In this document: piece after piece, positions 23,481 through 47,370 of the stretch
How the letters are laid out: each line of letters begins with the position of its first letter
How positions within the stretch are numbered: position 1 is the first letter of the stretch
NCBI GenBank assembly: GCA_052034855.1
Contig: JBPOIE010000023.1
Coordinates: 13,534 to 77,533, forward strand
Source: Bdellovibrionota bacterium
GTDB taxonomy: Bacteria > Bdellovibrionota > Bdellovibrionia > Bdellovibrionales > Bdellovibrionaceae
Direction: 5' to 3'
DNA: 64,000 nucleotides
Program-made: the position numbers and the translations under genes
The notes under the pieces: generated by a model
Databases searched by the model: none
What the model was told of the DNA's origin: nothing
What the model saw: the letters and a program-made list of their open reading frames with translations, nothing else

Positions 23481-23496
23481 TGGTACAGGAATCGCA
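23481..23496 (+). promoter_or_regulatory. Putative sigma54 -24/-12 promoter (module 1)
   Basis: TGGTACAGGAATCGCA versus consensus TGGCACG-N4-TTGCW; GG and GC at exact spacing. Confidence 0.55.
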
Positions 23497-23511
23497 ATAG
23501 CCTTTTAAGTG

Positions 23512-23526
23512 GTCTCAGATTGAGAC
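23512..23526 (+). promoter_or_regulatory. Palindromic operator-like site GTCTCA-N3-TGAGAC (copy 1)
   Basis: Perfect inverted repeat 15 nt before the barrel start codon; variants at 27900 and 47311. Confidence 0.55.
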
Positions 23527-23541
23527 AGAAAGGCACCATCA

Positions 23542-24420
23542 ATGCTTAACGTGCAAAAAAACTTTAGGATTTTGGTTTTATGCTTAGCATCTTCGATAAC
23601 TGCTCTTGCAGCAGAGCCTTCGACGACAGCTGTCAGTACATCGCCACTGCCTCAGACCACATCAACGACGACGATAGCTACTCCAGTTTTAAATAACGAG
23701 ACCGCAAAGAAGTTCAGCTTAATCACCGGCCTTGAATATTCACAAAAAGTCGAAGTCGAAGAAAACACGGAACGCGAATCCAGCACAGATTTATCATTTA
23801 TGGCTACATATAAAATTAATGATCTTTATAATGTGTCGGCAAAAACAGCTTTAACACAAGAGAATAATGGCCCTAAAAATTCTTCGATATCTGATTCAAC
23901 AGTCGGTTTTACCGTTAAGGGTGTTAAAATCAACGATCAGTGGATCACGACACATGCGATGTCTTCGATTTTACCAACAAGCGAAACTAGTCAAGACCGT
24001 GATCGATTAAGAGCTGCGATTGCGATCACGAACGGAGTTTCGTATTCAGGCGATTTACTGAAAGCGAAGTACAGTTTAGGTCTGTCAAAAAACTTTCATG
24101 AGTTCGATCAAAATGCAGAAGGCACTTTCTTAAACGAATACCGTATCACAAACTTGATTAGTCTTATTGTAACAGTGTCGGACAAGTTTTCAGTATCAGT
24201 GTCTGGACTTTACCGCATCAGCTACACATACGACAAAATAGATCGTTACGGTTTTGGTACTTTTGGTGATCTAAACTATGCTTTTAAAGAAGATCTATTT
24301 ACAAATCTTGGCGTTTCAACAGAAGGCAACGCTTTGAAATCGAATGGTGTTGATTCCAATATCAACATTTATGACGACACAGCCTCTGTCGTTAGAGCTG
24401 GATTAACTTATGTTTATTAA
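23542..24420 (+). CDS. Predicted outer-membrane beta-barrel protein (module 1)
   Basis: Signal peptide ending ALA, Thr-rich linker, amphipathic beta-strands, C-terminal aromatic (AGLTYVY); C-terminus homologous to 27964..28935. Confidence 0.65.
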   Translation: MLNVQKNFRILVLCLASSITALAAEPSTTAVSTSPLPQTTSTTTIATPVLNNETAKKFSLITGLEYSQKVEVEENTERESSTDLSFMATYKINDLYNVSAKTALTQENNGPKNSSISDSTVGFTVKGVKINDQWITTHAMSSILPTSETSQDRDRLRAAIAITNGVSYSGDLLKAKYSLGLSKNFHEFDQNAEGTFLNEYRITNLISLIVTVSDKFSVSVSGLYRISYTYDKIDRYGFGTFGDLNYAFKEDLFTNLGVSTEGNALKSNGVDSNINIYDDTASVVRAGLTYVY

Positions 24421-24481
24421 AATTAAGAATTTAAAGAATAAGAAATTACAAAAAACGAACACTAAAAAGATTGAGGGGAAA

Positions 24482-27400
24482 ATGGTAACAAATTTTAACA
24501 AACAAAAAATAGTTCTCAGCCTGATGGCCGTAGGTCTTCTTGGGTTGGCCAGTTGTACGAAAAAAGTAGCGTACGAAGAAGTTGCAAAAATTCAGGAAAA
24601 AGAGAAAATTCTCTCGAAGTCTGTGATTGATACCAAATCAGAGTTTTTAATGGCAGCTTCTCAACAGCAGTCAAGCCGATCAGCAATTGATGCTTTTCCT
24701 TTCTTAGCAGGCGACAATAAACGCGTTAAAATCGAGATCGATAAAGATGTCATGCGTATTGTAGAGACCGAAAAAGACGAACGTTTTAAATCGAACGAAA
24801 CGAATACAAAACTTGTTTTAGAAATTCCTATTGAACATGTTCAGTACCGTTGCGCTAAAGATAAATATGGAAATTGTACGAATAAAGAAGAAGAAGCTGA
24901 CGATATTCCTTGGGATTCAAAAGATACAATGAAAATTAATTTTGGCGCAGCAAAATCGGGTCAACTTGATTTATTGCCTATAATGTCAAGTCAAACTGTC
25001 GGTGAAAACTGTTACGAAGAAGTCAGTTCTCGTTTAACAAAAGCTGATGTTGAAAAAGATGCGATCAACTTTCAAGTTCTACGAACGTTTAAAACTCGTT
25101 TGGAGTGTGTGACTGGTGAAGGAGCTTCATCATTCGCAGAAATCATTACTGATGCGACGATCAGCGCTGTGTACCACTATTCTTTAGTGAAAGTGGATTC
25201 AATTTTATCAAAAGACTATAAAACGATTTCATACCCTGTTTCATCTAAAGATGAGCAGACGTTTGGTTTTTTCAGCACGAGCCGTACTCAATTAGATACT
25301 GACAATAATAATACGGACAAAAGCACAATTCAAATCATGAATCGTTGGAATCCGAATCGTAAAGAAATCGTTTATTTTTTAAGTGATGAATTTGCGAAAC
25401 CTGAAAATAAAATGATCAAAGATTTAACTTATAAAACAGTTGATAATCTAAATAAAGGTCTTGAAATTTCTGGCGTTAATTTCAGAATTAATCTGAAAGA
25501 GCCCGCTGGAAAAATCCCAGGTGATATCCGTAACAGTATGATCGTTTTGGTTGAAGATCCAGTTGCTGCAAGTGTGATCGGATACGGTCCACAAACTGAA
25601 GATCCTAAAACAGGCGAGATCATTTCTGCACGAACTGTGATGTTTTTAGGAACAATTAAAAAATTCGTTCAATACACGTACAATGATATTCTTTTACAAA
25701 AGAAAAATGCCAAACTTGAAGCAGCCAAAGTTGCTAAAACTTTGATGCCGTCTTTATCATTATCTCCAAATATCGTTGCTATCACAGAAGCCAAAAAGAA
25801 AACAGGCCGTGCATTTAGTTTAGCGAAATTAAATGAATCAGTTTCTGCTCAGGTAGGAAAGGGCGCAAAATCAAAGGAATCAATCAAATCAGCTCCTTCG
25901 ATTGGTTTAGGTTTACAAAAATCTAAAATCGAAAAAGCTTTAAAGAATTACACAGCTCAACGTAACGAGGAATTTTCAGGAACTGATTTAAAATCAAAAG
26001 TGAAATACCTTCATTTAGCAAAAAACTGTGCTTTTTCTCCGAACAAAGAATCTATTGCTGGAGAAATCAGTCAAAAGTTAGCAGATCAATTTCCTGATGA
26101 TGCCAAAGACTGGCATGATCTTTCAGCTGAAGAAAAAGAACAGGTGATCGCCATCATTTTACCTGAAATTTGGGTACCTACTTTAATTCATGAAATGGGT
26201 CACAATTTAGGCTTACGTCATAATTTCCAAGGTTCTGAAGATAAAGCGAACTTTTACTCGACAGACGAACTTGCACAAAACGGAATTGAACATAAAGTGG
26301 TTTCATCATCAGTGATGGAATATATCGAGGACCTCAAGGCATTACCAATTTTAGGTAAATACGATATCGCAGCCTTAAAGTTTGGATATTTGCGTGAAGT
26401 TGAAGTTAAGAAAGCAGATGGCACAACTGAAATGGTGAAAATTCCTAATACTTTAGAAAAATTGTCAGCTGACTTTAAAGCAAACAGCTTAGAATTAAAA
26501 GACTACGGTTTTTGTACTGATGAGCACACTGGGATTAATGCTGGTTGTAAACGTTTCGACTTAGGAACTTCGTACACAGAAATCACTCAGAACTTAATCA
26601 AAGGCTACGAAGATGCTTACGAGCACCGAAACTTGCGTGATGGCCGTGCAAACATGAGCTTATTTGATGACTTAAGATATGCTTCACGTATCGGTGGAAT
26701 CTTTACTGAATTACGTATCATGATGGAAGTTCGTGAACGTATTAAGTACCGTTTTGGTCTTGATGATGCGGCTCCTGAATGGGACAGTATCGAATTTTTA
26801 AAAGATTTGAAAACAGCGACTTTATTAGGTGGTCAGTTTATGGCGAACGTGTTGTTAGTTCCGGATACAACATGTGCTGTGGCTTTAGCTTCTAAACCGA
26901 ATCAAATTATTGCGGTTGTGAACTTAAATCAAATTGATCCAGAAGCGATGTCATGTGCGAAAGCTCAATTAAATCCAAACTATTTAGTTGTTGGACAAGC
27001 TGGTAAATCATTTAACTCTAAAAAAGATCCTGAAAGCACAAATAACTATGCTGATCAAATTGATATGCGTGGTATTTGGATTGATAAATTAATGGCGACA
27101 CGAACTTTAATGAGCCGTCAAATCGGAATCCACAGCATGGATTTAAATGTTGATAGTTTCTTAAACGTTCCTGAATTACGTACTGGAATCTTAGACGCTG
27201 TTGGCGGATTATTAACAGATAACGTGGTTGCAAAAGTTCCATTTACTTTGAACGACGGATCTGTGGCTGAATTTGAAATTGGATATGACCTTTCAACAAC
27301 TCAAGTGATTGAAAAATCAATTCACCCAATGATTGCTCGTCGCTTTGGAATCAACGAAACTGGATCTACGCAATTACAACAAGTTGTTGCTGGTACATTG

Positions 27401-27808
27401 GCACGCAATGCCTACGATAAATCTGGTGCACACTCTGAAGATAACGTTTTATCTGATCTGGTTTCAGTTCACAGATTGAATGAAGTTTCAGATATTCAAC
27501 CAGGTGCAAAAGATCAGTTCGTGATGATCGACAATGCAAAATATATTGCGACAAAATCAAATGCATATGCTTTTGATGCTATTCAAAACATGACAATCTC
27601 GACGCAACTTGAAAAAGTAGCTCCAGAGAAAATCGGCGAAATTTTGGATGCTAAATTAGGTGGTCAGTTAACAACTCCGACAGACGCAACTGCCGAAGAA
27701 AAAGCGGTCTGGGCGATGTCAGCTGAGACTTTAGATGCTTACCTCAATCAAATGATCAAGCCGTCTAAATTCTATGAGCAATTACTACGAGTTTTACCCG
27801 GCGCTTAG
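24482..27808 (+). CDS. Large lipoprotein zinc metalloprotease, Met-zincin (EcxA/DUF4953-like)
   Basis: Lipobox LGLASC, HEMGHNLGLRH (HExxHxxGxxH), Met-turn SSVMEY. ATG 24482 has a GAGGGG SD and is preferred over 24410. Confidence 0.85.
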   Translation: MVTNFNKQKIVLSLMAVGLLGLASCTKKVAYEEVAKIQEKEKILSKSVIDTKSEFLMAASQQQSSRSAIDAFPFLAGDNKRVKIEIDKDVMRIVETEKDERFKSNETNTKLVLEIPIEHVQYRCAKDKYGNCTNKEEEADDIPWDSKDTMKINFGAAKSGQLDLLPIMSSQTVGENCYEEVSSRLTKADVEKDAINFQVLRTFKTRLECVTGEGASSFAEIITDATISAVYHYSLVKVDSILSKDYKTISYPVSSKDEQTFGFFSTSRTQLDTDNNNTDKSTIQIMNRWNPNRKEIVYFLSDEFAKPENKMIKDLTYKTVDNLNKGLEISGVNFRINLKEPAGKIPGDIRNSMIVLVEDPVAASVIGYGPQTEDPKTGEIISARTVMFLGTIKKFVQYTYNDILLQKKNAKLEAAKVAKTLMPSLSLSPNIVAITEAKKKTGRAFSLAKLNESVSAQVGKGAKSKESIKSAPSIGLGLQKSKIEKALKNYTAQRNEEFSGTDLKSKVKYLHLAKNCAFSPNKESIAGEISQKLADQFPDDAKDWHDLSAEEKEQVIAIILPEIWVPTLIHEMGHNLGLRHNFQGSEDKANFYSTDELAQNGIEHKVVSSSVMEYIEDLKALPILGKYDIAALKFGYLREVEVKKADGTTEMVKIPNTLEKLSADFKANSLELKDYGFCTDEHTGINAGCKRFDLGTSYTEITQNLIKGYEDAYEHRNLRDGRANMSLFDDLRYASRIGGIFTELRIMMEVRERIKYRFGLDDAAPEWDSIEFLKDLKTATLLGGQFMANVLLVPDTTCAVALASKPNQIIAVVNLNQIDPEAMSCAKAQLNPNYLVVGQAGKSFNSKKDPESTNNYADQIDMRGIWIDKLMATRTLMSRQIGIHSMDLNVDSFLNVPELRTGILDAVGGLLTDNVVAKVPFTLNDGSVAEFEIGYDLSTTQVIEKSIHPMIARRFGINETGSTQLQQVVAGTLARNAYDKSGAHSEDNVLSDLVSVHRLNEVSDIQPGAKDQFVMIDNAKYIATKSNAYAFDAIQNMTISTQLEKVAPEKIGEILDAKLGGQLTTPTDATAEEKAVWAMSAETLDAYLNQMIKPSKFYEQLLRVLPGA

Positions 27809-27835
27809 TTCTTAGATAAATTCTTGTTCTGATTC

Positions 27836-27868
27836 AAAGGGATCTCTGGAAACAGAGATCCCTTTTTT
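27836..27868 (+). terminator. Intrinsic terminator after protease 1
   Basis: AAAGGGATCTCTG-GAAA-CAGAGATCCCTTT followed by a T run. Confidence 0.9.
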
Positions 27869-27895
27869 CATTTAAAAATTCCAAAGCTCAAATAC

Positions 27896-27918
27896 GAGTG
27901 TCTTACTTTGAGACACTC
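27896..27918 (+). promoter_or_regulatory. Palindromic operator-like site (copy 2, extended)
   Basis: GAGT-GTCTTA-CTT-TGAGAC-ACTC: the same core as 23512 with one mismatch, plus 4 extra palindromic bp. Confidence 0.55.
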
Positions 27919-27935
27919 AGTTTGAAGAATCTTCA

Positions 27936-27951
27936 TGGCATGCTGATCGCA
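27936..27951 (+). promoter_or_regulatory. Putative sigma54 -24/-12 promoter (module 2)
   Basis: TGGCATGCTGATCGCA; same TCGCA -12 variant as module 1. Confidence 0.55.
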
Positions 27952-27963
27952 AATTACTAGCTT

Positions 27964-28935
27964 ATGATGAAGATAAAACAGCTTAAAGAAAACATATTAG
28001 GTTTAAAAACAAAAAGTCTGCAAAAAGTGACGTTTTTGGCAGTTTTTAATTTAACCTTAGTCAGTACAGCTTTTGGTACAAATCGTTCATTGGCTGCGGT
28101 AGTTGATCCTATTAAAGCTCAGCTTAAACAACAGCAAACTTATGATTATAAAATTCCTAATTTCATCAAAACAAAACCTGATTATACATTCAAAGCAACT
28201 GTTGAGGTTTCAAGAAGTACAAGTCTTTATGATTTTAAAGATGGTTCTCGTTCGGATAGTTTAGATCTTTTATTCTACCCTATTTTAAAAACGCCAGTTG
28301 GAACATTTAGCCTTAAAGAAACTTATTCTAAAAATTTAAATAATGAAGCTGATACGGCCAATGGTTTTTCCGATGCGACGATTTCATATGGTTTTGGCGC
28401 TAAAGACTGGGAGTGGTCGCCACCTTATGTTTTAACAATGTCGCCGTCAATTTCAGTCGTGGTTCCAATTTCAGATCTTTCAGTTAAAAAGAATCAATTA
28501 CAAACTGCTGTTGCAGGTGGATTAACTTTTGGAATTCGCCCTGATGGTTTAGCTGCAGAAAAAGCAGGATCTTGGAATGTGGCAATGGCCGTGACTGCGG
28601 GTCGCAGTTTTCACACATACGAAGAAGATATTAATGGTTCAGTACTCAATAAATACTCATCGAATCAAACTTTAAGCTTAGGTTATTCGATTTCAAATTG
28701 GAGTTTTGGCTTATATTATACAAATCGTTCACGTTGGACCTATCAAGGGAATATTAAACAATCCTTTGTTCTCAGCCAAGTAATATCATATTCATTCAAC
28801 GACAATTTTTACGCAACAGTAGGCCATAGTAACGATGCCGGATCGGTTTTAAAAGCCAACGGTTTTGAATCAAATATTCAAATCGTCGATGAGAACAATT
28901 CGGGAGTTTATTTAACTCTCGGAAGTACATTTTAA
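27964..28935 (+). CDS. Predicted outer-membrane beta-barrel protein (module 2)
   Basis: Signal-like N-terminus, amphipathic strands, terminal Phe (LTLGSTF). GSVLKANGFESNIQIVDE aligns with GNALKSNGVDSNINIYDD of barrel 1. Confidence 0.65.
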   Translation: MMKIKQLKENILGLKTKSLQKVTFLAVFNLTLVSTAFGTNRSLAAVVDPIKAQLKQQQTYDYKIPNFIKTKPDYTFKATVEVSRSTSLYDFKDGSRSDSLDLLFYPILKTPVGTFSLKETYSKNLNNEADTANGFSDATISYGFGAKDWEWSPPYVLTMSPSISVVVPISDLSVKKNQLQTAVAGGLTFGIRPDGLAAEKAGSWNVAMAVTAGRSFHTYEEDINGSVLNKYSSNQTLSLGYSISNWSFGLYYTNRSRWTYQGNIKQSFVLSQVISYSFNDNFYATVGHSNDAGSVLKANGFESNIQIVDENNSGVYLTLGSTF

Positions 28936-28987
28936 TTTAATTGAATTTATTTAAAGAACGAATTTAAAAAAGAAGAGGGAGACACAG

Positions 28988-31900
28988 ATGAACAAAACGA
29001 GCATAACAACAAAGGGATTACTGCTGATGAAGGTTTTAGTCACACTGGCTATTGTCAGTTCGTGTACGAAAAACAGAGTTGCAGAACTACCTGAAGATAC
29101 GGCACCTAACGTCTATGAAATAGCCATGTTTGGATCGCCTGATGAGAACTCTTCATTTGTAGCTTCAAAAGACGAAGTTTCTGCAGCTTCAGATAATGAG
29201 CTCAGAGTCTTAGATTTAAATCAAGCTGGCAAATTATCAGCGGATGAGGTTTCTGTCCCAGCACGCGTCAAGTTCATGTTCGATAAACTCCCAATGACGA
29301 GTCAAACGACGAAACAGTTTAAAATTACATTTTCTGTCGATAAAAATAATATCACTGCATACAAAGTTGCAAGCTCTGCAAAAGACTTAAATGCCATCGA
29401 AAGAAGTTTAGCCATTTCTGCACGCGAGGCCAAATTATTAGTTAAATTATCTCGTGCACAAAAAACTGAATTAAAGGCATTAGCAAGTGAGCAAAAAGTT
29501 GCTGCTGTTGAAAGAGAAAAAATTAAAGCTGGTCAAGCTGTCGGTGCATTATTAGTCCCAATGTTTAAATATGAAATTGCAGGTTATGGCGTTTTAGAAA
29601 GAACTAAAAACGAACTCAAAGAAGAAACTGCTGTTTTACGTCTGAAAGAAACTGACTGGTCAAAAGCAACTCATATCCAAATCAATTCACGTACTGATTC
29701 ACGTAAAGTGGTAGGAATGGATGCGAGTCAAGCCAAGGCAATGAATCAATTATTTAAAGAAGATAAAATTGATAAACGCTTAACAACAGCTGGTGAATTA
29801 GCGACTGATTTAAAAGTTGGTTTAAAATTTTTAGATGCAAAAACTCAAGTGATGACAAAGTTATCTGCGGGATCACTTCTCATTTATGAAGTCAGCGATG
29901 TTTCAAAATTAACTGATGAACAAGCACGTATCTATAAAGCTGGTGGATCATCAGGACGCGTTGTTTCTTGTTCTGATATCGAAGTGAAAGACGTTGTTAA
30001 ATCAACAAGCGCAACTTGCGTTGTCGTTCTTGTTGCTGACGTTCCTGTCGCTTATAAAAAATTAGAACTTTCTTTAACTGATGTGAATGGCACAACGTCA
30101 TCAAACGTTGAATCAAAAGATGTTCCAAAATCACAAAGCGTAGGACTTGTTGAAATTTTAGAGAACACGAAAGCAAATCAACGTGAAGTAACTGGGCTTC
30201 TAGATCCAGACAGTTCAATTAAAATTTCTGATCTGCAAGGTGAATTCATGTTCCGTCGTACTTTTGAAGATGCTGCGACGACATTCTTAGGTCGCACGGG
30301 AACTTCGGGTGATATGGCTTTAGTCAAATTTGAACTTGAAAACGACCGCTTGGTTGTCAGAAATCAGTTGTCTTTATTAGCTTACACAGGTCAAGGCGCT
30401 AAAGACCGTGAAGAAATTATGTCGATTCCAGTCAAGTACTACTACTCGACTCGTCAAGATGCTCACGGAAGTGACTTAGTTTTAGGTTCATTGATTGAAA
30501 CCACAAAAGATAAAGCGAACTACATCAAATTAGATTGGACTCAAAACGCTATTCCAGACTCTTCGTCTCCATTAGCATTTTTCGATGCTGGCAGTTGCTT
30601 CATGGCGACGTCTTCTAAAAAAGTGACTCATACTGATATGCGTTTAGCAAATGAAGGTGTCCTTAATTTCTCAATCAGCAGTTCCCACACCGTGAACCCT
30701 AATTGCGCAACAATGAAGGATGTGAACTCAGCTTATTGGGCTGGTTCAATGCAATTGAATTTTAACGTCTTAGAACGTATTTCATTTGTTAAACGCACGA
30801 ATACTGATACAGATAAACAATTTTCTCAAAATATTTCGTTCATGGCTCAAGAAGCTTTCAACTTTGGTGTATTCACATTAGCTGACAAAGTGAATGAAAA
30901 TGGATCTTTTTCGAATCGTGATGGCAGTGAAAAATACATGCCTATGATTCACGATTTACGTAACGGTAAAACAATGAAGTGGTACCTAGGTGGTATCAAC
31001 GATAAAACAGCGACTGATCCAGAACGACGTCAATTATTAATCGAAGCGACTCAACAAGTCGTTGCTGAATGGAATAAAACATTCGCTATTTCGATGAAGG
31101 GAACTTCACTTGAGCGTAGCGGTGATTACATCGAATTAGTGATCGAAGACGCTGGAAAAGAAACAGGTCGTCTTGGTGATTTAAATCGCAACTATATCTG
31201 GTTGAATGAAATTCCTGCTGATAACGGATTACTAGGTGTCGCGCAACCTGCTGCGAACCCACGTTCGGGAGTTATTGAATCTGCAAACGTGATCGTTTAC
31301 ACAGGAAATACTTTTGAACAAACTCAAATCTTGTTAAAAATGACGGAATTGTCTCGTAAATACGAGAAAATGATCGAAGAGTTAAAGAAACAAGCCATTG
31401 CAGAAGCAATAAAGAAGAAAGAAGTTGTTTCTACTCAAACTGAATCAGTGAAAGCAGAAAACAAAGATGCGAACAAAAAAACAGTTCAAAAAATTTCTCA
31501 ATTAGGTCATAAGAACAAAGCTTACCTCGCTAACTTGGTAAAGTACTTCGAATTAGAAAATAAAAATGTTAAAAAAGCCATCCAAGGTATGGCTATGGGT
31601 CAAAGTGCTGAGCAATTAAAGCGAGTTTTAAATAAAGATACTTTTAAATCGAGTATCAAATCAGAAAAAATTCAATTGCCAACGAATTCAATGACTTTGT
31701 CTAAAAAAATGACTGACCTTGCGATGAATAAAAAATTAACTCAAAATGAGCGTGAGTTTGAATTGAAATTAAATGATTTATTCTTAAGCCACGGTTCTTT
31801 ATCAGATGACGTGAAAGCAATTATCAACAAACGCCAACAAATGTTAGCTTTATCAGTTCAATTTGATAAGTCGACACAAAATCGCCCAGGTTGTTTCAGA

Positions 31901-34114
31901 TATTCTCGTAATGACATCAATGACGAAGCTTTAGCGTTAGATGCTGATCCTCGTAAAAATTTGATGTTGAACTTTAAACAAGCTGTGATGAGCACGTTGT
32001 CTCATGAATTAGGTCATGCATTTGGCTTAATGCATAACTTCACGGCTTCAACGGATAAAGCGAATTACGAATTTAAAGGTGAAGAAACTGGTCGAAATTA
32101 TTCATCGATCATGGATTACATCAGTGATATCGATCAACAGTACGCTGGTCCTGGTCCTTATGATGCTCATGCGATTCGTGCAGCTTACACAGGTTATGTT
32201 GAATTGAGTGATGAAGTTTTAAAAAATGAAAAACAAATGGGTGCAATTAAGACAGCAAAAATCAATTTGATCAATGGTTCGATGATTCATATCAATGATT
32301 TAGTTCGATTGATGGGTGCAAATTCATTTGTTCACTTTACTAAAGAAACTTTAAACAAAGCTGGAATCGTTAAACATTATGCTCAATGTAGCGACGGAGG
32401 AACTTTAACTTCAATTATGTGTAATCGCTTTGATACTGGTGGATCGGCAAAAGAAATCGTTCAAAATATGATTGCTGATTATACTCGTTCATATGCAAAC
32501 AGAAACTATGTTTATGACAAGATTTTATTTGGATGGCCGCAAAAAATCCAAGTGATCTCTCGAAACATTCAAACATTTTCACAGATTCGCGCATTCCTTG
32601 ATGAAACAATTATGACGGCGATTTACGGATCTGGACGTCCTGACAACGTGAACGAAGCGATTATGCAGGATCAAGTGATGGCATCTATGGAAGGTTATAA
32701 ATTTTTCCATGAAGTCATTCGAACTCCAGAAACGTCTTCGAGCTTTTCTGATGTTAATAATCGTTTCTTTGCTGTCCCTTACCAATACGAAGCAATGACT
32801 ACGGATGCATCTGGAGCTCAGACAAAAACAGTGAAAGATGATGTTAAAATTGTAGAAGCACGTTCACTGTATGACGTCGGAATGTCTCGCGATAAAATTG
32901 ATACAATCGGTATCGGCTATGATAAAATTTTTGCGATGAATTTTTTAATGCAAACAACGACGGCTTTTGGAACTGACGATAGCCAACAAGGTTTTATCTC
33001 TTACAAAGATTTCGAACAGTTTTTCTTAGGTGTGACGGATCCAAAAGATTCACTGACAGTGAATACAATGGCTGAAATCTTAACTGAGAACTTGCAAGTA
33101 GCATTCTTTGCTCCGAACGGTCAATTAGTGAATATGAATGCCCCGGTGGAAGTGAATAAATCATTAGGTGATCAAACGGCTCTTGCTGCAATCGTTGGAT
33201 TATCTGAGTCAAAATGGAAAGCATTTGATTCATTTGCTGAAAGTTTCAAAATGGCTCGCGCGACAGTGAAAAACGCACCGAAAGATCGTTTAAATATCAC
33301 TCGTCTTGGCCAAGATCGTTCAAAGTCAGATACAACTGTTTACTTTGCAACTCAGAATGGTGTTGCTGCAAACGTAATTATCCAACAAGCTGCGATGGGT
33401 GATACATTATTATCAAACCAAAAAGATCTGTTTCAGTTATTATCAGATTCAATGACGGCTGACACAGGCTTTATGGACAAGATCAATGCGGCACGAGATG
33501 CAGCATGTACAACAAATGATGATGGCTCACTGAAAGATGAAGCTGGTTGTAATGCGGCATATGCGAAACCGGTGGCTGACTATATTAAAGAAGATGCTAC
33601 TCTTGTTGCGCCGAAACAAAAAGCCGACAATGTTGCTAAAAAACTTGTGAACAAAATTCGACAGTTGAACGCTCAAGGTGCGATCATGCCAAAAGAGCTA
33701 GATAAACCTGAAGCTAAAACAAATTTTGTGATGCAAGTTGAAACGGTTCGTTCGTTCATGAATGATCAAATGACATTGTTATTGTCATTGAAGAAAGAAC
33801 TTGAAAAAGCACCGGCTGAAAACTTAAATCAAACGATCCAAACGGTATTACAAATCATTGGTCAAGTTCGTCAGCAAAATGATCAATTGTCAGCAATGCC
33901 ATTGGTCGCATACACACAATCATTTTTAATTGAGGCTTCAAAAACAGTGAAAATCAAATTGGCATCTGGTGACGAGTTAACTGGTGAAGTTTTGATGACT
34001 CGTATGATGAATGGATCAAAAATCCAGAACTCTCACGAAAAGATCGTTGATGTCATCGACAAATTAACTCAGTTTTCACGATTTGTTGATCCTGACTTAA
34101 TTGTTACAAAGTAA
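28988..34114 (+). CDS. Giant (1708 aa) lipoprotein zinc metalloprotease, Met-zincin
   Basis: Lipobox AIVSSC, HELGHAFGLMH, Met-turn SSIMDY; NPRSGVIESANV parallels DPKTGEIISART of protease 1; GAGGGAG SD. Confidence 0.85.
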   Translation: MNKTSITTKGLLLMKVLVTLAIVSSCTKNRVAELPEDTAPNVYEIAMFGSPDENSSFVASKDEVSAASDNELRVLDLNQAGKLSADEVSVPARVKFMFDKLPMTSQTTKQFKITFSVDKNNITAYKVASSAKDLNAIERSLAISAREAKLLVKLSRAQKTELKALASEQKVAAVEREKIKAGQAVGALLVPMFKYEIAGYGVLERTKNELKEETAVLRLKETDWSKATHIQINSRTDSRKVVGMDASQAKAMNQLFKEDKIDKRLTTAGELATDLKVGLKFLDAKTQVMTKLSAGSLLIYEVSDVSKLTDEQARIYKAGGSSGRVVSCSDIEVKDVVKSTSATCVVVLVADVPVAYKKLELSLTDVNGTTSSNVESKDVPKSQSVGLVEILENTKANQREVTGLLDPDSSIKISDLQGEFMFRRTFEDAATTFLGRTGTSGDMALVKFELENDRLVVRNQLSLLAYTGQGAKDREEIMSIPVKYYYSTRQDAHGSDLVLGSLIETTKDKANYIKLDWTQNAIPDSSSPLAFFDAGSCFMATSSKKVTHTDMRLANEGVLNFSISSSHTVNPNCATMKDVNSAYWAGSMQLNFNVLERISFVKRTNTDTDKQFSQNISFMAQEAFNFGVFTLADKVNENGSFSNRDGSEKYMPMIHDLRNGKTMKWYLGGINDKTATDPERRQLLIEATQQVVAEWNKTFAISMKGTSLERSGDYIELVIEDAGKETGRLGDLNRNYIWLNEIPADNGLLGVAQPAANPRSGVIESANVIVYTGNTFEQTQILLKMTELSRKYEKMIEELKKQAIAEAIKKKEVVSTQTESVKAENKDANKKTVQKISQLGHKNKAYLANLVKYFELENKNVKKAIQGMAMGQSAEQLKRVLNKDTFKSSIKSEKIQLPTNSMTLSKKMTDLAMNKKLTQNEREFELKLNDLFLSHGSLSDDVKAIINKRQQMLALSVQFDKSTQNRPGCFRYSRNDINDEALALDADPRKNLMLNFKQAVMSTLSHELGHAFGLMHNFTASTDKANYEFKGEETGRNYSSIMDYISDIDQQYAGPGPYDAHAIRAAYTGYVELSDEVLKNEKQMGAIKTAKINLINGSMIHINDLVRLMGANSFVHFTKETLNKAGIVKHYAQCSDGGTLTSIMCNRFDTGGSAKEIVQNMIADYTRSYANRNYVYDKILFGWPQKIQVISRNIQTFSQIRAFLDETIMTAIYGSGRPDNVNEAIMQDQVMASMEGYKFFHEVIRTPETSSSFSDVNNRFFAVPYQYEAMTTDASGAQTKTVKDDVKIVEARSLYDVGMSRDKIDTIGIGYDKIFAMNFLMQTTTAFGTDDSQQGFISYKDFEQFFLGVTDPKDSLTVNTMAEILTENLQVAFFAPNGQLVNMNAPVEVNKSLGDQTALAAIVGLSESKWKAFDSFAESFKMARATVKNAPKDRLNITRLGQDRSKSDTTVYFATQNGVAANVIIQQAAMGDTLLSNQKDLFQLLSDSMTADTGFMDKINAARDAACTTNDDGSLKDEAGCNAAYAKPVADYIKEDATLVAPKQKADNVAKKLVNKIRQLNAQGAIMPKELDKPEAKTNFVMQVETVRSFMNDQMTLLLSLKKELEKAPAENLNQTIQTVLQIIGQVRQQNDQLSAMPLVAYTQSFLIEASKTVKIKLASGDELTGEVLMTRMMNGSKIQNSHEKIVDVIDKLTQFSRFVDPDLIVTK

Positions 34115-34137
34115 TTTTAAGCTCAAGTAAAACTTTG

Positions 34138-34169
34138 AAAGGGTTTCTGGAAACAGAAACCCTTTTTTT
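34138..34169. terminator. Bidirectional intrinsic terminator between protease 2 and addA
   Basis: AAAGGGTTTCTG-GAAA-CAGAAACCCTTT with a T7 run, between convergent genes. Confidence 0.9.
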
Positions 34170-39836: not shown

Positions 39837-39850
39837 GCCTTAAGCATAGA

Positions 39851-41754: not shown

Positions 41755-41768
41755 TTTTAGAACCTCTC

Positions 41769-42869
41769 TTAATATCTAACTGTAAATTTCATATTAAACC
41801 TGCGATCTTCACGAGCTGTCGTGACACCTGCTACAGTTGTTCCAATTTCTTCACCATAGCTGGCCACTTGCCAACTGAGTTTTTCTGATGCCACTTCAAA
41901 TCCTGCTGTCCAATAACGTTGATTCATACCAGCTCTGAAAAATAAAATATCTCGGTAATTTGTTTCAAACCCAAAGTGAGCTCGTTTCATCGAATCATCA
42001 TCTTGTCTTGAATTGGCCACGTCGTTATATTGCAATGACCACACAGTTCGAAATGAATTTGAGTGTATTGGAAAAAGTGAAATCCCGACATCTACAGACT
42101 GCTTCACGGTTGCTGGCTGTGTCGCCGTTCTTAACCTGAGACCATCTTTAGCATCAAACTTTGTATCACCGATATCATGAGCAATAACCGCCAACGACGG
42201 AAGTAATTTGATCGGAACTTGAATCATCATCGAGGCATCATAACTGATTCCAGTTCCTTCGGAACCAATGGTTTCCAAATCAAATGGGCCCGTTGTTGGC
42301 AATGTTGTATTATTCACTTCGATACGATTGAAGGCTTTTGCATTTACACCGATTTTTAAAATACCACTAAATAGTCTCAGGTTCGTTCCAATCACCGCAC
42401 CTAAATCACTTTGATAAACTGTGTTCATCGTCGTTCCAGTAATTTCAGTTTCTGCATGCAATTGATTTCTGTAGATCAAGCCGAAACCAATATTTCGACG
42501 AACAATCGAAGGCGTTAATTGAAAACGAGCATGATAATATTTTTCACGCTGAGTATCGAGGACTGTTTTAATGGATTCAATATCAAATGCTTTTCCAGAA
42601 ATTGTTGAAGCCACATCTGAACTGAAATTAGTTGTCATTTCAACTTCAGGGTCGAAAGCTGTTCCATAAAGATCCCGCAAACTACCTAAATTGGCTGGAT
42701 TACGAAATAAAGCCGTTTCATCACTAGATACGGCGAGCCCCGCTCCGCCCATACCTTGCGCGCGTGTATTCTTGTAGAATTCCATCCACTCTTGCGCAGA
42801 GGCCATAGAACAAAACAACATGGGTATTATGATTGCGACACTTCGTGTGCCTTGTAAAATCCGTTTCAT
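41769..42869 (-). CDS. Outer-membrane beta-barrel, PorV/TraF_2/FadL-like, paralogue of 39851..40954
   Basis: RAQGMGGAG..ALFRNPANL, AHFGFE..FRAGMNQRY, terminal Tyr. ATG 42869 avoids the overlap with coaE. Confidence 0.65.
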   Translation of the reverse strand: MKRILQGTRSVAIIIPMLFCSMASAQEWMEFYKNTRAQGMGGAGLAVSSDETALFRNPANLGSLRDLYGTAFDPEVEMTTNFSSDVASTISGKAFDIESIKTVLDTQREKYYHARFQLTPSIVRRNIGFGLIYRNQLHAETEITGTTMNTVYQSDLGAVIGTNLRLFSGILKIGVNAKAFNRIEVNNTTLPTTGPFDLETIGSEGTGISYDASMMIQVPIKLLPSLAVIAHDIGDTKFDAKDGLRLRTATQPATVKQSVDVGISLFPIHSNSFRTVWSLQYNDVANSRQDDDSMKRAHFGFETNYRDILFFRAGMNQRYWTAGFEVASEKLSWQVASYGEEIGTTVAGVTTAREDRRFNMKFTVRY

Positions 42870-42876
42870 GTTTAGT

Positions 42877-42903
42877 TTATCGGAACATTTTGAGATGAAC
42901 TTA
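42877..42903 (-). promoter_or_regulatory. Putative sigma28 promoter upstream of the barrel-lipoprotein-barrel genes
   Basis: Minus strand reads TAAG-N15-TCCGATAA. Confidence 0.45.
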
Positions 42904-43488
42904 AGTGTTTTTGAGCCAATTCGAGACAATCTGGATCAGACTTTTTTCAGATCCAGAATTATCAATACAGTACTTTGACTGTGATATTTTTGTCGCAAGT
43001 GGTAACTGATTTTGAATTCTTTGCAAGGCTTCTGCCTGGCTTAAAGTATTGCGATTGATCAGACGTTGCAGCTGAATGTGTGGTTCACACCACACTGTCG
43101 TCACAGCATCAAACTGAGTTTGCATTTTTTTTTCAAATAGGAGTGGAACATCATAAACACAAAGTTTGAAACCTTGTTTTTTATAATCTGTTTTTAAATT
43201 TTGAACTTTTTCTTGGATCAATGGATGTAGAATACTTTCAAGTTGATGCTTTTTCTCGGGACTTGAAAATATGATTTCTGCCAGTTTTTTACGATCTATA
43301 TCTGTGTTCTCTTTTAAAATATCAGAACCAAAATGAGACACGACGGCCAAGTAACCGGCCTCCCCCATACGAGTGACTTGATGTGAGATTTGATCGGCAT
43401 CGATCACAGGACAACCTAGACTTTCGATCAGTCTTGACACTGTTGATTTACCAGTTGCTATACCTCCGGTCAGTCCTATCCACTTCAT
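42901..43488 (-). CDS. coaE: Dephospho-CoA kinase
   Basis: IGLTGGIATGKS, IDADQISH, LESILHPLI, DVPLLFE, IDNSGS. Confidence 0.95.
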   Translation of the reverse strand: MKWIGLTGGIATGKSTVSRLIESLGCPVIDADQISHQVTRMGEAGYLAVVSHFGSDILKENTDIDRKKLAEIIFSSPEKKHQLESILHPLIQEKVQNLKTDYKKQGFKLCVYDVPLLFEKKMQTQFDAVTTVWCEPHIQLQRLINRNTLSQAEALQRIQNQLPLATKISQSKYCIDNSGSEKSLIQIVSNWLKNT

Positions 43489-43565
43489 ATCTCTCTTTTT
43501 TCTCCAAATTCGAATGAATAATACACTTAATTTCGTTTAACAAAGCAGTTTGCTGATTTTAGCCT

Positions 43566-43592
43566 TAAGAATCGATTTATATTAGCCGATCA
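43566..43592 (+). promoter_or_regulatory. Putative sigma28 promoter of the kinase gene
   Basis: TAAG-N15-GCCGATCA. It overlaps the first ATG, implying translation from ATG 43601. Confidence 0.45.
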
Positions 43593-45562
43593 TGAAATCA
43601 ATGTCCAACATTGAGCAATTCGGAAAATACATTTTACTCGAAAAAATAGCTGCTGGCGGTATGGCCGAAGTTTATTTAGCAAAATCAAATGGCGCAAATG
43701 GCGTTAGTAAGTTCGTAGCAGTAAAGCGGATTTTACCGCAGTACTCTGACAACGATGAATTTATTGACATGTTTAAAGAAGAAGCCAAAGTCGCGATTAA
43801 TTTAAATCATTCAAATATTGTTTCTATTTATGATTTTGGTATCGAAAAAGGCCAATTTTTCTTGGTTATGGAATACGTTGAAGGCCGAAACCTTCGACAA
43901 ATTCTAAATGAACTCAAAAAAGCCAACAAAAGTATTAATATTGAACAAGCCGTTTATATTGTTAAAGAAGCTGCGGCGGGTTTAGACCATGCTCACCGCT
44001 GCACGGATTCGAAATCAGGAAAGCCGCTCAACATAACTCATCGAGATATGAGTCCACAAAATATTATGATCTCCTTTGAGGGAGAATCAAAAGTGATCGA
44101 CTTTGGTATCGCTAAGGCAGAAAAAGAATCTGAAGCAACTAAAGCTGGAACATTAAAAGGTAAGTTTGCCTATATGAGTCCAGAACAATCTGAAGGGCTA
44201 CCGATCGATCCTCGCACTGATGTTTTTGCATTAGGAATTATACTTTGGGAGCTATTGGCCAACGATCGTTTATTTACTGGCAGCAATGAAGCCGCGATTT
44301 TAAGAAAAGTTCGTGAATGCCAAATTCCACCGATTCGAAAAATAAATCCTCTTGTTCCACCTGAACTTGAGCGAATTGTTATGAAAGCTTTAGCAAAAGA
44401 TAAAAATGTTCGTTATCAAACTGCAGCCAATTTACAAAAAGACCTTAATCGATTTTTAAATATGCAGTATCCCGATTTTGCGTCTCAGGATTTCAGTTCG
44501 TTTATCAAAGACTGCTTTAAACATGCTTTTGCCGAAGGCCGTGAAAAACTGGTCCAATATGGAAAAATTGAAAATGCGGCAGATTTCTTAGCAATGACTG
44601 AAACGCAATCTCAGCACACTCAAAATAATTCAAGTAAACCCACGCCGCCAGAAATTAAAGATTTACCACCAACACCGAAAGTGGCACAAACTGTACAGCC
44701 ACCTCCAATTCCTGTCATCGAAGCTGCTCTGGCGCCAAAAGGACTGAATTCTAATCCACAAGTTAAAATTTCACTCGATGGAATTCGAAACGTTGGAATC
44801 AACAAAAGTCATACGCCAAAGCCGCAAGCTTTAAATTCAAACTTTGAGAACGGACCTTCTACTCGCGTCACTCATATCACTCAGCTCTCAAAAGTGATGC
44901 CGCCAAATAATAAATCACAGTCAAGCAGTGGCGGCGACATGGCAATGAAGCTTTTCTTTGTCGTAGCGCTCGGTTTAGCAAGTTTTTGGGGTTATACAAA
45001 TTATTTAAAGCCCCAACAAAATGAGACCAATCTTGCAAACAATACTAAAAAAACACAAATATCTCCAGATGGTAATTCTGGAAAAATAGACATGGGTTCA
45101 ACAGCACGAGTTTCAATCTCAGTGACAAGCCAACCCTTAGGTGCTCGAATTTTTATTGATGGAAAAGACACAGGACAATTAACTCCATCGATTGTTCCAG
45201 TCGTCGCAAACAAAGAAGTTGTGATAACAATGGTCAAAGATGGATTTCAACGTTACGAAACAAATAAGCAATTTGCACAAACAGCGTCATTTGCAGCAAC
45301 ACTACTGCCACAAACGAGTGGCGGTTATTTGAATATCTATGTCGTCAATGGTGGTGTTAAACCTGCTATTTTTGTCAATGGCCAGCGCCTTGCGGAAGAG
45401 CTCCCCATTAAAAAATATCGCGTCAATGCAAATGCCGAAATCGTCGTTTATGCAGAAAATGCGATCACTCGACTGAGTGATCAAGTCAAAGTAAAACTTG
45501 CAGCAGATGAAATCAGAGATATAGAATTGATTCTAGGTCGAAAACACTCAGAAAAAAAATAA
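43592..45562 (+). CDS. Membrane Hanks-type Ser/Thr protein kinase with extracytoplasmic PEGA-like domains
   Basis: IAAGGMAEV, VAVK, HRDMSPQN, DFG, YMSPEQ, DVFALG; one TM; VTSQPLGARIFIDG PEGA-like motif. Confidence 0.93.
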   Translation: MKSMSNIEQFGKYILLEKIAAGGMAEVYLAKSNGANGVSKFVAVKRILPQYSDNDEFIDMFKEEAKVAINLNHSNIVSIYDFGIEKGQFFLVMEYVEGRNLRQILNELKKANKSINIEQAVYIVKEAAAGLDHAHRCTDSKSGKPLNITHRDMSPQNIMISFEGESKVIDFGIAKAEKESEATKAGTLKGKFAYMSPEQSEGLPIDPRTDVFALGIILWELLANDRLFTGSNEAAILRKVRECQIPPIRKINPLVPPELERIVMKALAKDKNVRYQTAANLQKDLNRFLNMQYPDFASQDFSSFIKDCFKHAFAEGREKLVQYGKIENAADFLAMTETQSQHTQNNSSKPTPPEIKDLPPTPKVAQTVQPPPIPVIEAALAPKGLNSNPQVKISLDGIRNVGINKSHTPKPQALNSNFENGPSTRVTHITQLSKVMPPNNKSQSSSGGDMAMKLFFVVALGLASFWGYTNYLKPQQNETNLANNTKKTQISPDGNSGKIDMGSTARVSISVTSQPLGARIFIDGKDTGQLTPSIVPVVANKEVVITMVKDGFQRYETNKQFAQTASFAATLLPQTSGGYLNIYVVNGGVKPAIFVNGQRLAEELPIKKYRVNANAEIVVYAENAITRLSDQVKVKLAADEIRDIELILGRKHSEKK

Positions 45563-47271
45563 TGACTGAAAAAAAATTGGAAAACCTTAAATCTTGGTTG
45601 AACCGTTTACGGTTAAGAAATCAGACTGCTGCCATCAGCTACAAAGACTCTCAAACGAAGCAATGGATTCATTTCACACCCGTGCAGTACTTAAAAAAAA
45701 TAATTTCATTACAAAAAATTCTGGAACAATATTCAGAAACAGGAAGCCTTAAAAATAAAACAGTGGCTTTAATTTCTAATACTCGTTGGGAGTGGGCTGC
45801 ACTTGATATTGCGGCAATTGCTGGAGGGGCTTTATTAGCACCGCTCTATGCAAATCTAAATGACGAGGATGTGACTTATATTTTGAATCACTGCGAAGCA
45901 GATATTGTTGTTCTCGAGACTAAAAAGCATCTTGAACAATTTCATCGTATTGAAAACCAACTGATTAAAAAATTAAATCCAATTATTATTGATGAATTAA
46001 ACATCGACACTGACTCTCTCACTGAAAAACAAATTGACGCCTTTATTGAGAGGGCAGGTCTGGTTCAGCCTGAAGACCCGATCACAATTATTTATACTTC
46101 TGGAACCACAGGACAACCCAAAGGTGTCTTAATGCAATTGCAAGCATTGATGTCTGAGGTCAGTGAAACATTTGCTTTGTTTCGCATAACAGAAGCAGAC
46201 ACCTCTCTTTCGTTTCTCCCCTACGCTCATGTCATGGGCCGCATCGAACACTGGGGAAGTTGTGCTATTGGATATCGTCTTGCATTTGCAGAGTCCATAG
46301 AAACACTTAGAAATGATCTCATGACGATTCAACCCGATTTTCTTATTGCAGTACCACGAATTTTTGAAAAAATATATGCAGGAATTTTGAATAAAGTTGA
46401 AACAAAACCTCTCAATAAAAAATTATTTGATCAAGCTTTGCTCGTATCAGAAAAAATAAATTATTATCGACAAACAAAACAGACACCTCCTCTGTCTTTG
46501 ATTTTAAAATTCGAAGTGCTCTCGAAAGTGGTTTTTGCTCCTGTTCGGAAAGCATTCGGTGGCAAGCTGAGATTTGCGATCAGCGGTGGAGCCCCACTCG
46601 GAGCCGAACTGGGTCAATTTTTTGCGAATATGGGAATCAAAGTTCTTGAAGGCTATGGTTTGACAGAAACTTTCGCAGCCATCACGGTGAATACAGAATC
46701 ACAATGGAGATTAGGCACCGTAGGGCGACCAATCGGAGATGTTGATATTCGTTTTGATGAGGACGGTGAAATTCTAGTTAAATCCAAAAAGATTCTTAAA
46801 GAGTATTACAAAAATCCCGAAGCCACAGCAGAAGTATTCAAAGATGACTACTTTCGTACCGGCGACATCGGAGAATTTACTTCAGATGGATTTCTTAAAA
46901 TTACAGATCGTAAAAAAGATCTGATCAAAACGGCTGGTGGCAAATACGTGGCACCGCAAAAACTTGAAGGACTTCTCAAGCAAGATCCATTGATTGCCCA
47001 GGTTTTAATTATTGGAGATCAAAGAAAATTTATTTCTGCTTTAATCTCAGTTGAAATTTCCTCTGAAAACATGGAAGTCACATTCGATAAGGTCAAAAAA
47101 CAAGTTCAAAAAGTAAACTCATCTTTGGCCAGTTATGATGCGATCAAAAAATTTGAAATTGTTTTTGAATCTTGGACTGTCGACAACGGTAGCCTGACTC
47201 CCTCAATGAAGATCAAACGCAAGGTGCTTGAAAAAAGATATGCGGATTTGATCGAAAAACTGTACTCTTAA
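45562..47271 (+). CDS. fadD: Long-chain fatty acid-CoA ligase (AMP-forming)
   Basis: YTSGTTGQPKG, EGYGLTET, YFRTGDIG, ITDRKKDLIKTAGGKYVAP, LTPSMKIKR; TAATG overlap with the kinase. Confidence 0.85.
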   Translation: MTEKKLENLKSWLNRLRLRNQTAAISYKDSQTKQWIHFTPVQYLKKIISLQKILEQYSETGSLKNKTVALISNTRWEWAALDIAAIAGGALLAPLYANLNDEDVTYILNHCEADIVVLETKKHLEQFHRIENQLIKKLNPIIIDELNIDTDSLTEKQIDAFIERAGLVQPEDPITIIYTSGTTGQPKGVLMQLQALMSEVSETFALFRITEADTSLSFLPYAHVMGRIEHWGSCAIGYRLAFAESIETLRNDLMTIQPDFLIAVPRIFEKIYAGILNKVETKPLNKKLFDQALLVSEKINYYRQTKQTPPLSLILKFEVLSKVVFAPVRKAFGGKLRFAISGGAPLGAELGQFFANMGIKVLEGYGLTETFAAITVNTESQWRLGTVGRPIGDVDIRFDEDGEILVKSKKILKEYYKNPEATAEVFKDDYFRTGDIGEFTSDGFLKITDRKKDLIKTAGGKYVAPQKLEGLLKQDPLIAQVLIIGDQRKFISALISVEISSENMEVTFDKVKKQVQKVNSSLASYDAIKKFEIVFESWTVDNGSLTPSMKIKRKVLEKRYADLIEKLYS

Positions 47272-47310
47272 TTTCTTAAAAATCACTGTTTTTGCCACTT
47301 GTTGTCCACT

Positions 47311-47325
47311 GTCTAACTTCGAGAC
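47311..47325 (+). promoter_or_regulatory. Palindromic operator-like site (copy 3)
   Basis: GTCTAA-CTT-CGAGAC followed by ACTCA; shares the CTT spacer and the GAGACACTCA arm with copy 2. Confidence 0.45.
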
Positions 47326-47354
47326 ACTCAAAACTCATATATTCCGGCCTATTG

Positions 47355-47370
47355 TGGAATGGTTCATGCT
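47355..47370 (+). promoter_or_regulatory. Putative sigma54 -24/-12 promoter of the Cys-rich lipoprotein
   Basis: TGGAATGGTTCATGCT with GG-N10-GC spacing; weaker match than the other two. Confidence 0.4.

Follow-up and report, generated by a model that had tools for sequence, protein, structure and literature searches.

What controls two metalloprotease modules and a Cys-rich lipoprotein gene in an uncultured, Bdellovibrio-like predator of the Bdellovibrionota, and by way of which promoter elements? This question is raised by a 64,000-nucleotide stretch of contig JBPOIE010000023.1 (assembly GCA_052034855.1), hereafter called the window, in which three intergenic regions each carry a GTCT/AGAC palindrome next to a box of the GG-N10-GC type. 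An earlier note on this DNA had proposed that an unknown dimeric regulator co-controls the three loci. The analysis described here suggests that the boxes are probably sigma-54 promoters and that the palindrome is most likely the close-range site of their enhancer-binding protein (EBP), for which PilR is the leading candidate.

The nearest public genomes to the window are metagenome-assembled genomes (MAGs) of Pseudobdellovibrionaceae and Bdellovibrio, and its sequence was detected in wastewater and activated-sludge metagenomes. For comparison we used MAGs and isolates of Pseudobdellovibrionaceae and Bdellovibrionaceae, the loci of which are labelled L001 and so on.

A dyad shared by three intergenic regions

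The window was searched with the pattern GTCTNANNNNGAGAC (GTCTNA-N4-GAGAC), and dinucleotide-preserving shuffles of the window served as control. Three sites were found, at 23512, 27900 and 47311, which gave four matches since site 1 reads on both strands. The shuffled windows contained on average 0.07 matches and at most 2. All three dyads are intergenic, although only 2,598 nt (4.06%) of the densely coding window lies between genes (P ~7e-5).

The palindromes and boxes described in the earlier note are present where it placed them. It had each palindrome within about 30 bp of a GG-N10-GC box, and the measured distances are 15, 21 and 29 bp; its geometry, with the dyad 3' of the box at module 1 and 5' of the box at the other two loci, also holds, as does the TCGCA variant of the -12 element common to the boxes of sites 1 and 2. 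The palindrome it gave, GTCTCA-N3-TGAGAC, is real but too short. The full element is a 17-bp dyad, TGTCTnA-N3-TnAGACA (TGTC-N9-GACA), often with an additional CTCA on the side that faces the promoter. Sites 2 and 3 are identical at 19 of 21 nt (TGTCTWACTTYGAGACACTCA). The best match of site 1 is obtained on the minus strand; one of its outer halves deviates, with GGTC for TGTC. The similarity around the dyads ends at 21 nt, and the orientation of the dyads relative to the downstream genes is consistent.

The sigma-54-type boxes and their conservation

Compared with the sigma-54 consensus the boxes read TGGTAC-N5-TCGCA (site 1), TGGCAT-N5-TCGCA (site 2) and TGGAAT-N5-ATGCT (site 3), with the GG and GC exactly 10 bp apart. 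Each points toward its downstream gene and lies 14-47 nt before the start codon. All GG-N10-GC sites of the window were scored against TGGCAC-N5-TTGCW with a cut-off of at least 5 of the 7 other consensus positions. Ten boxes reached this cut-off, and three of these were intergenic (23481, 27936 and 23531) against an expectation of ~0.4. The third of them, AGGCACcatcaATGCT at 23531, overlaps the start codon of module 1 and was rejected as a second promoter; it is without conservation in L004 or L001 and probably reflects the context of a ribosome-binding site.

The two other intergenic regions, of 155 bp at site 2 and 139 bp at site 3, contain no sigma-70-like promoter that the scanner could find and no other conserved palindrome. 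A sigma-70 or extracytoplasmic function (ECF) promoter inside or beside the dyad was also considered and discarded, as inspection revealed no conserved -10 element at a fixed distance. The module 1 intergenic region does include a sigma-70-like promoter, at 23378-23405.

Comparison with relatives showed that the elements are conserved at all three loci. For module 1, the locus L004, with a protease 69% identical to that of the window, has kept TGGTACaggaaTCGCAatagc and GTCTCAgaacGAGACAgaaaggcaccat base for base: the box is identical and the dyad reads GTCTCAGAACGAGACA, but divergence is seen in the 10 nt that separate them and in the remainder of the intergenic region. The box lies within a 21-nt conserved block of alignment A1. 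In the more distant L005 (45% identical) only the box is kept, nearly identical (TGGTACggaacTCGCA). For module 2, the box is kept in L004 as TGGCATgttcaTCGCA (cATGGCATg.t.aTCGCAa) and the dyad has decayed to the half-site GTCTCATTATAAAACA; L001 has TGTTTTATACTGAGACACC at the dyad position.

The third locus could be followed furthest, since the pair of lipoprotein and M3 oligopeptidase genes is syntenic in ~40 Bdellovibrionota genomes. In most of these a 17-bp TGTC-N9-GACA dyad stands 5' of a -24/-12-like box, and dyad and box occur together in more than 15 relatives. The dyad of L028 is TGTCTAATTCTGAGACACTCA, and the site 3 box is kept in L028 and L007 (TGGAATggtt[tc]gTGCT); other clades have AGGCATaccccTTGCT, CGGTACagatcCTGCT and similar sequences at the same position. 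Further dyads at orthologous lipoprotein promoters are TGTCTAATTCTGAGACA, TGTCAAAGATTTTGACA, TGTCAAAAAGTTCGACA and TGTCAAAATTCTAGACA, with boxes such as TGGAAT-N5-GTGCT, AGGCAT-N5-TTGCT, CGGTAC-N5-CTGCT and TGGCTC-N5-TTGAA. Between clades the inner arm positions of the dyad co-vary and the outer TGTC and GACA are invariant. This near base-for-base conservation in orthologous intergenic regions, while the flanks diverge, indicates that the boxes behave like real sigma-54 promoters.

A relaxed -12 element, with TTGAA, TTGAT or TTGTA for TTGC, was seen in many orthologous boxes (L015, L018, L020, L023, L027, L034, L035, L019, L050 and L129), for example TGGCTC-N5-TTGAA and, in B. bacteriovorus, AGGCAC-N5-TTGAA. 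Either this lineage tolerates a loose -12 element or these promoters have decayed.

At the lipoprotein promoter, cultured B. bacteriovorus (L034 and L035) has no TGTC-N9-GACA dyad but palindromes of another sequence, GGGCACC/GGGTGCCC. These palindromes are repeated, lie ~120-170 nt upstream of the lipoprotein ATG and are NtrC-like (GCACC...GGTGC). The replacement suggests that regulation of the lipoprotein promoter has been rewired in B. bacteriovorus.

Distribution across bacteria

The 19-of-21-nt match between sites 2 and 3 prompted a scan of 185,579 GTDB species genomes with the extended motif TGTCTNANNNNGAGACACTCA (16 specified bases). It returned 68 matches, of which 19 are in Bdellovibrionota, a phylum that accounts by our own estimate for ~1% of the scanned species. 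Fifteen of these 19 are non-coding, defined as not covered by any open frame of at least 150 codons, compared to 5 of the 49 matches in other phyla (Fisher P = 9e-8). The genes behind the Bdellovibrionota dyads mostly encode signal-peptide proteins and lipoproteins, and include a HEFGH zincin (L129), a phospholipase D-like protein (L113) and two Flp pilins (L103 and L124). The enrichment in promoter regions that the earlier note had put forward as a check was thus borne out, at genes for exported proteins. The data support the view that the palindrome is a conserved cis-element specific to Bdellovibrionota and common to non-homologous, mostly signal-peptide genes.

The Flp-type pilin genes (..DESGQGxxEY..) lie 3' of perfect dyads in two Bdellovibrionales MAGs, at ~7494 in L103 and 270 nt past the dyad in L124. 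No recognisable GG-N10-GC box was found between dyad and pilin gene in either.

These results also bear on the possibility that the motif is a product of chance or a non-regulatory repeat, either a small dispersed repeat or paired type IIS sites (GTCTC/GAGAC) that survive outside genes. GTCTC is indeed a known type IIS recognition sequence, the motif is short, and loose GG-N10-GC sequences occur about once per 300 nt per strand. We nevertheless regard this explanation as extremely improbable, as the element is kept at orthologous positions across genomes with diverged flanks, its offset to the boxes is fixed, its orientation to the downstream genes is consistent and it is enriched in one phylum. 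The lack of flanking similarity past 21 nt further argues against a mobile repeat.

Spacing between dyad and box

Measured from the dyad centre to the leading G of the GG, the spacing at the orthologous lipoprotein promoters is 27, 38, 38, 41, 47, 49 (five times) or 59-60 bp (four times). The values cluster at ~27, 38, 49 and 59 bp, in steps of about one helical turn. In the window, site 2 is spaced by 30 bp and site 3 by 38 bp. A cultured relative, Pseudobdellovibrio sp. HCB154 (NZ_CP176530), carries the arrangement before its lipoprotein gene, where TGTCAAAGATTTTGACA is centred 49 bp 5' of the GG of AGGCATaccccTTGCT.

Matches of the genome scan were also examined for boxes. This check took in 18 intergenic or borderline loci of the 19 in Bdellovibrionota; L095 was left out, as its dyad lies inside a 341-codon open reading frame (ORF). 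A forward box occurs exactly 37 or 38 bp downstream of the dyad centre in 5 of the 18 (Table 1), which has P = 1e-7 given the measured box frequency. If L121, the L028 site orthologous to site 3 of the window, is set aside, four unrelated genes remain (P = 4e-6).

A second dyad-like sequence, TGTCAAACTGATCAACA, was noticed at 23330-23346 in the module 1 intergenic region, with one mismatch to TGTC-N9-GACA. It resembles the L018 dyad TGTCAAAAAGATCAACA, and lies 144 bp upstream of the GG at 23482 (38 bp plus ~10 helical turns). Its conservation in L004 (TGTTGAACTTTTGAACG) is weak, and chance alone would give about one match of this kind between genes.

The putative dyad-binding protein

A sigma-54 promoter cannot fire without an AAA+ activator. 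Given this need, and because the dyad is the sole conserved element near the boxes and keeps a fixed helical face, the dyad is best understood as the activator's own site. One dimeric protein would then recognise the dyad at all three loci. At the module 2 and lipoprotein promoters an EBP bound 30-38 bp 5' of the -24 GG (~-55 to -63) would keep to one face of the helix, and could from there remodel the closed sigma-54 complex without long-range looping. We consider it rather probable that the dyad is bound by some EBP of the NtrC family, and only slightly less so that the complete arrangement holds, with three sigma-54 promoters, a close-range EBP site and PilR as first candidate.

The candidacy of PilR comes from the resemblance of the dyad to the published consensus of its site, TGT-N11-ACA with GTCT elements (PMC8035640, PMC6058289). 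This consensus is matched exactly at sites 2 and 3, and site 1 reads GGT-N11-ACA. The gene order pilB-pilT1-pilC-pilS-pilR has been described for the Bdellovibrio family (PMC4237445), and in B. bacteriovorus s4 the gene of the PilR orthologue follows pilB, pilT1, pilC and a histidine kinase gene. RpoN of B. bacteriovorus is bd0843 (PMC3464611). We found the PilR orthologue, 78-100% identical, in 80 genomes of Bdellovibrionaceae and Pseudobdellovibrionaceae (L155-L234), including the genomes of L028 (L221) and L007 (L227). Its recognition helix, I[ST]FRSMRYR[IV]EKY, is invariant across these genomes, which fits the invariant TGTC...GACA core. The same invariance made a test for co-variation between helix and half-site uninformative.

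EBP genes were encountered 1.3-8 kb from dyads in L151, L113/L155 and L087/L219, which could be chance; the one near the L113 dyad encodes the Bdellovibrio PilR orthologue. No NCBIfam equivalog cut-off was reached by the EBPs near dyads. Conserved dyads beside pilSR were few and mostly inside genes. A phospholipase D-like lipoprotein gene lies a few kb 3' of pilSR in several genomes. Taken together, the identification of the dyad-binding EBP as PilR is tentative, and we put it clearly below an even chance.

Several observations weigh against the proposed arrangement. Concerning the promoters, a search for RNA evidence of start sites found the sequence in DNA metagenomes only, apart from one RNA-labelled run that gave a single 143-nt contig within the gene. 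The site 3 box scores 4 of 7, a moderate match to the consensus, and many relatives have TTGAA or TTGTA at -12, not TTGC. Concerning the dyad, the 30-bp spacing of site 2 is ~3 bp off the 27/38-bp phase, site 1 follows its promoter, an unusual place for an enhancer, and the dyads of L103, L109, L116 and L124 have no recognisable GG-N10-GC box nearby. No EBP gene of the GAFTGA type was present in the window or the orthologous loci; the window has no rpoN gene either. With respect to PilR itself, the recognition helix is the same in B. bacteriovorus although the orthologous lipoprotein promoter there has no such dyad, L151 encodes a second EBP 1.3 kb from its dyad, an unrelated response regulator, and among the loci compared there was no type IVa pilin (pilA), only pseudopilins of type II secretion.

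Some of the same observations would suit a different arrangement, in which the sigma-54 promoters are real and a separate dimeric factor other than an EBP occupies the dyad, such as a repressor, anti-activator or co-activator of the CRP/MrpC or another helix-turn-helix type. It would modulate these promoters, with the true EBP bound elsewhere or not at all. Such a factor could explain why dyads are found on either side of promoters (at +6 to +20 for site 1, abutting the ATG in L129), why some lack a sigma-54 box and why no EBP gene consistently adjoins them. On the other hand, the fixed 37/38-bp spacing and the ~10.5-bp steps relative to the -24 element are expected from direct contact with the sigma-54 holoenzyme, and the short intergenic regions hold no other candidate enhancer. 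The operator of CRP/FNR-family proteins, including MrpC-like ones, is a 16-bp dyad (TGTGA-N6-TCACA or TGTC-N8-GACA), whereas the core found here is TGTC-N9-GACA (17 bp) in every clade and so has N9 spacing, not the N8 or N6 of CRP-family sites. In favour of a separate factor, Myxococcus MrpC recognises a dyad similar to the present one, TGTC-N8-GACA, although this string was sought in the literature and not found. The TGT-N11-ACA type, in turn, is that of published EBP sites (PilR, NifA-like). We therefore judge a separate factor to be unlikely, although it is the most serious competitor.

Binding by an EBP would modify the proposal of the earlier note, which treated the palindrome as the site of a regulator other than the EBP since EBP sites usually lie further from the promoter. 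Co-control of the three loci by one dimeric protein remains the best reading in view of the conservation and of the non-homologous exported-protein genes involved. That this protein would be distinct from the EBP is less likely because of the phased spacing, the lack of any other conserved element in the 139-155 bp and the match to the PilR consensus.

Site 1, downstream of its promoter

The dyad of site 1 lies at ~+6 to +20 of the predicted transcript, 15 nt before the ATG, and it has the same position in L004. It is inverted, so that the CTCA-like extension faces the promoter. A comparable case is L129, in which a TGGCAC-N5-TTGTA box is followed 99 bp further on by a dyad that borders directly on the start codon. 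An operator role is favoured at site 1 because any protein at +6 to +20 would come to lie across part of the open-complex footprint. Site 1 is thus more probably an operator or roadblock between promoter and ribosome-binding site, and less probably a downstream enhancer, for which there are analogies in other bacteria. As an operator it could provide negative autoregulation of the regulon or order the expression of module 1 relative to module 2, and the sigma-70-like promoter at 23378-23405 could be subject to it as well. The sign of regulation assigned to each site, activation at sites 2 and 3 and repression at site 1, is a prediction.

At the exact place of site 1, L001 (178-199) has an unrelated perfect palindrome, GACCATTT-N4-AAATGGTC, followed directly by the conserved AGAAAGGCACCA and the ATG. 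This swap hints at a structural or RNA-level constraint at this position, or at a change of regulator.

The palindrome might then act in RNA, as a hairpin in the 5' untranslated region (UTR) or between cistrons that affects mRNA stability, termination or access to the ribosome-binding site. Site 1 does lie within the predicted 5' UTR, the L001 palindrome before AGAAAGGCACCA looks like a compensatory change, and site 2 can form a stable fold (-13.4 kcal/mol, z = -4). However, sites 2 and 3 are upstream of the promoters, with site 2 situated past a genuine terminator. The fold of site 3 is no better than that of shuffled sequences (z = -0.06) and that of site 1 is marginal (z = -1.4). None of the sites is followed by a T tract, and it is the sequence that is conserved (TGTC...GACA and the asymmetric CTCA), not just the pairing. 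The dyads consequently do not resemble intrinsic terminators or structured 5' UTRs, and a role in RNA is very improbable.

Genes behind the three sites

The positions of the elements and genes are listed in Table 1. The gene pairs of module 1 and module 2 are paralogous, and the module 1 terminator stands between module 1 and the module 2 promoter. The two module 2 genes are probably co-transcribed since there is no box between them in the window.

Table 1. Promoter elements, dyads and genes of the three loci, and boxes at 37 or 38 bp from dyads of the genome scan.
Feature	Position in window	Strand	Description
Module 1 box	23481..23496	+	TGGTACaggaaTCGCA; predicted start near 23506
Dyad site 1	23511..23527 (15-nt core 23512-23526)	-	GGTCTCAGATTGAGACA, core GTCTCAGATTGAGAC; minus strand TGTCTCAATCTGAGACC then ACTTA
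Module 1 gene 1	23542-24420	+	292 aa, signal peptide, outer-membrane barrel-like, aromatic C-terminal residue
Module 1 gene 2	24410-27808	+	1132-aa Met-zincin, DUF4953 domain
Module 1 intrinsic terminator	27836..27869	+	GGGATCTCTG-gaaa-CAGAGATCCC then T run
Dyad site 2	27896..27920 (15-nt core 27900-27914; TGTC-N9-GACA 27899-27915)	+	GAGTGTCTTACTTTGAGACACTCAG, core GTCTTACTTTGAGAC
Module 2 box	27936..27951	+	TGGCATgctgaTCGCA; GC 14 nt before first ATG
Module 2 gene 1	27964-28935	+	323-aa paralogue of module 1 barrel-like protein
Module 2 gene 2	28988-34114	+	1708-aa Met-zincin
Dyad site 3	47310..47330 (15-nt core 47311-47325)	+	TGTCTAACTTCGAGACACTCA, core GTCTAACTTCGAGAC
Lipoprotein gene box	47355..47370	+	TGGAATggttcATGCT
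Cys-rich lipoprotein	47411-48007	+	198 aa
M3 oligopeptidase	48091-50145	+	downstream of lipoprotein gene
Boxes 37 or 38 bp from dyad centre, scan loci		+	L087 TGGCATtcaatCTGCT; L113 AGGCCGagtccTTGCA; L121 TGGAATggtttGTGCT; L123 TGGACCctcccTTGCT; L141 CGGAATacgtaTTGCT

The large module 2 protease has a strong box of its own in L004 (10587-10602, TGGCACgacgaTCGCA) and in L001 (5582-5597, TGGCACttcgaTCGCA). The corresponding region before the 1708-aa protease in the window (28936-28987) has a good ribosome-binding site and no box, so the operon structure differs among relatives. The distance between the GC of the module 2 box and the ATG at 27964 means that the transcript would be nearly leaderless (window 27949-27967), with a predicted start ~2-3 nt ahead of this ATG. 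In L004 (9604-9640) a Shine-Dalgarno sequence and an ATG occur 33 nt further on, where the window has ATA. The true start codon of the 323-aa protein is uncertain, given the near-leaderless start on one side and the L004 ATG on the other.

No terminator was detected between the lipoprotein and M3 oligopeptidase genes, and the two may form one operon. Site 3 is directly preceded (43592-47271) by genes for a PEGA-domain Ser/Thr protein kinase and for an acyl-CoA synthetase-like, AMP-binding enzyme, the second of which has its stop codon 39 nt before the first base of the dyad. Elsewhere in the window, a 290-aa ORF (61109-61981) with weak, sub-threshold Pfam matches to endonuclease VII and an HTH_38 domain adjoins a phospholipase D-like gene (59559-61007), and may be left over from a mobile element or homing endonuclease.

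Implications and comparison with known systems

With its position in front of genes for exported proteases, lipoproteins and pilins, the conserved pair of dyad and box outlines a regulon that can be put to the test, and it narrows the possible regulators of the predatory secretome to a few candidates. A broader and more speculative possibility, which we consider doubtful, is that PilS-PilR directly drives a sigma-54 regulon comprising the Met-zincin modules, the phospholipase D-like enzyme, the M3 peptidase operon, lipoproteins and Flp pilins, through one close-range, phased dyad that would serve as operator if placed downstream. If so, sensing of the pilus or of contact with prey would be tied to deployment of the predatory secretome. 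With PilR as the binding protein, the circuit would link type IV pili, which are needed for predation, to the secretion of hydrolytic enzymes. In the literature on RpoN targets in Bdellovibrio and its relatives we found mention only of the existence of the rpoN gene; a published RpoN regulon for the Bdellovibrio lineage, or a description of this architecture for the group, was not found.

Mechanistically this would be a standard sigma-54 promoter with an enhancer; of interest are how unusually close to the promoter the dyad lies, at phased distances, and that the site seems to be used in two placements. The closest likeness is to PilR systems. Features in common are the TGT-N11-ACA dyad, formed here from GTCT/AGAC, its coupling to -24/-12 promoters, and regulons with pilins and with proteins that are secreted or found at the surface; the Bdellovibrio family also has a PilR orthologue of high conservation. 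PilR systems differ in that here there is one dyad per promoter and not several in tandem, centred at ~-55 to -63 or downstream, and in the targets, which are metalloprotease modules, a lipoprotein-M3 peptidase pair and Flp pilins. Binding of PilR is a prediction in the present case, and B. bacteriovorus departs from the pattern by having the PilR helix without the dyad at the orthologous promoter.

The upstream activator sequences of NtrC (TGCACC-N5-GGTGCA) and NifA (TGT-N10-ACA) are likewise dyads of 16-17 bp bound by a dimer with a Fis-type helix-turn-helix. Their AAA+ activators are absolutely needed, and a site close to the promoter depends on the face of the helix. The classical sites, however, are located 100-150 bp upstream, are often paired and act through looping assisted by IHF. 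The half-site sequence is different as well, and the dyad described here is one base longer in spacing than that of NifA.

For the placement of site 1 and of the L129 dyad, as opposed to sites 2 and 3, the relevant parallels are EBPs that use downstream sites or double as repressors, namely FlrC of Vibrio cholerae, FlbD of Caulobacter with its ftr elements and FleQ of Pseudomonas. The genes controlled by these proteins are flagellar or concern exopolysaccharide, and the FleQ box is a 14-bp GTCA-N6-TGAC. They set a precedent for a single activator-family protein that binds 5' of some promoters but across the start, or 3' of it, at others, and the present loci look like such a case.

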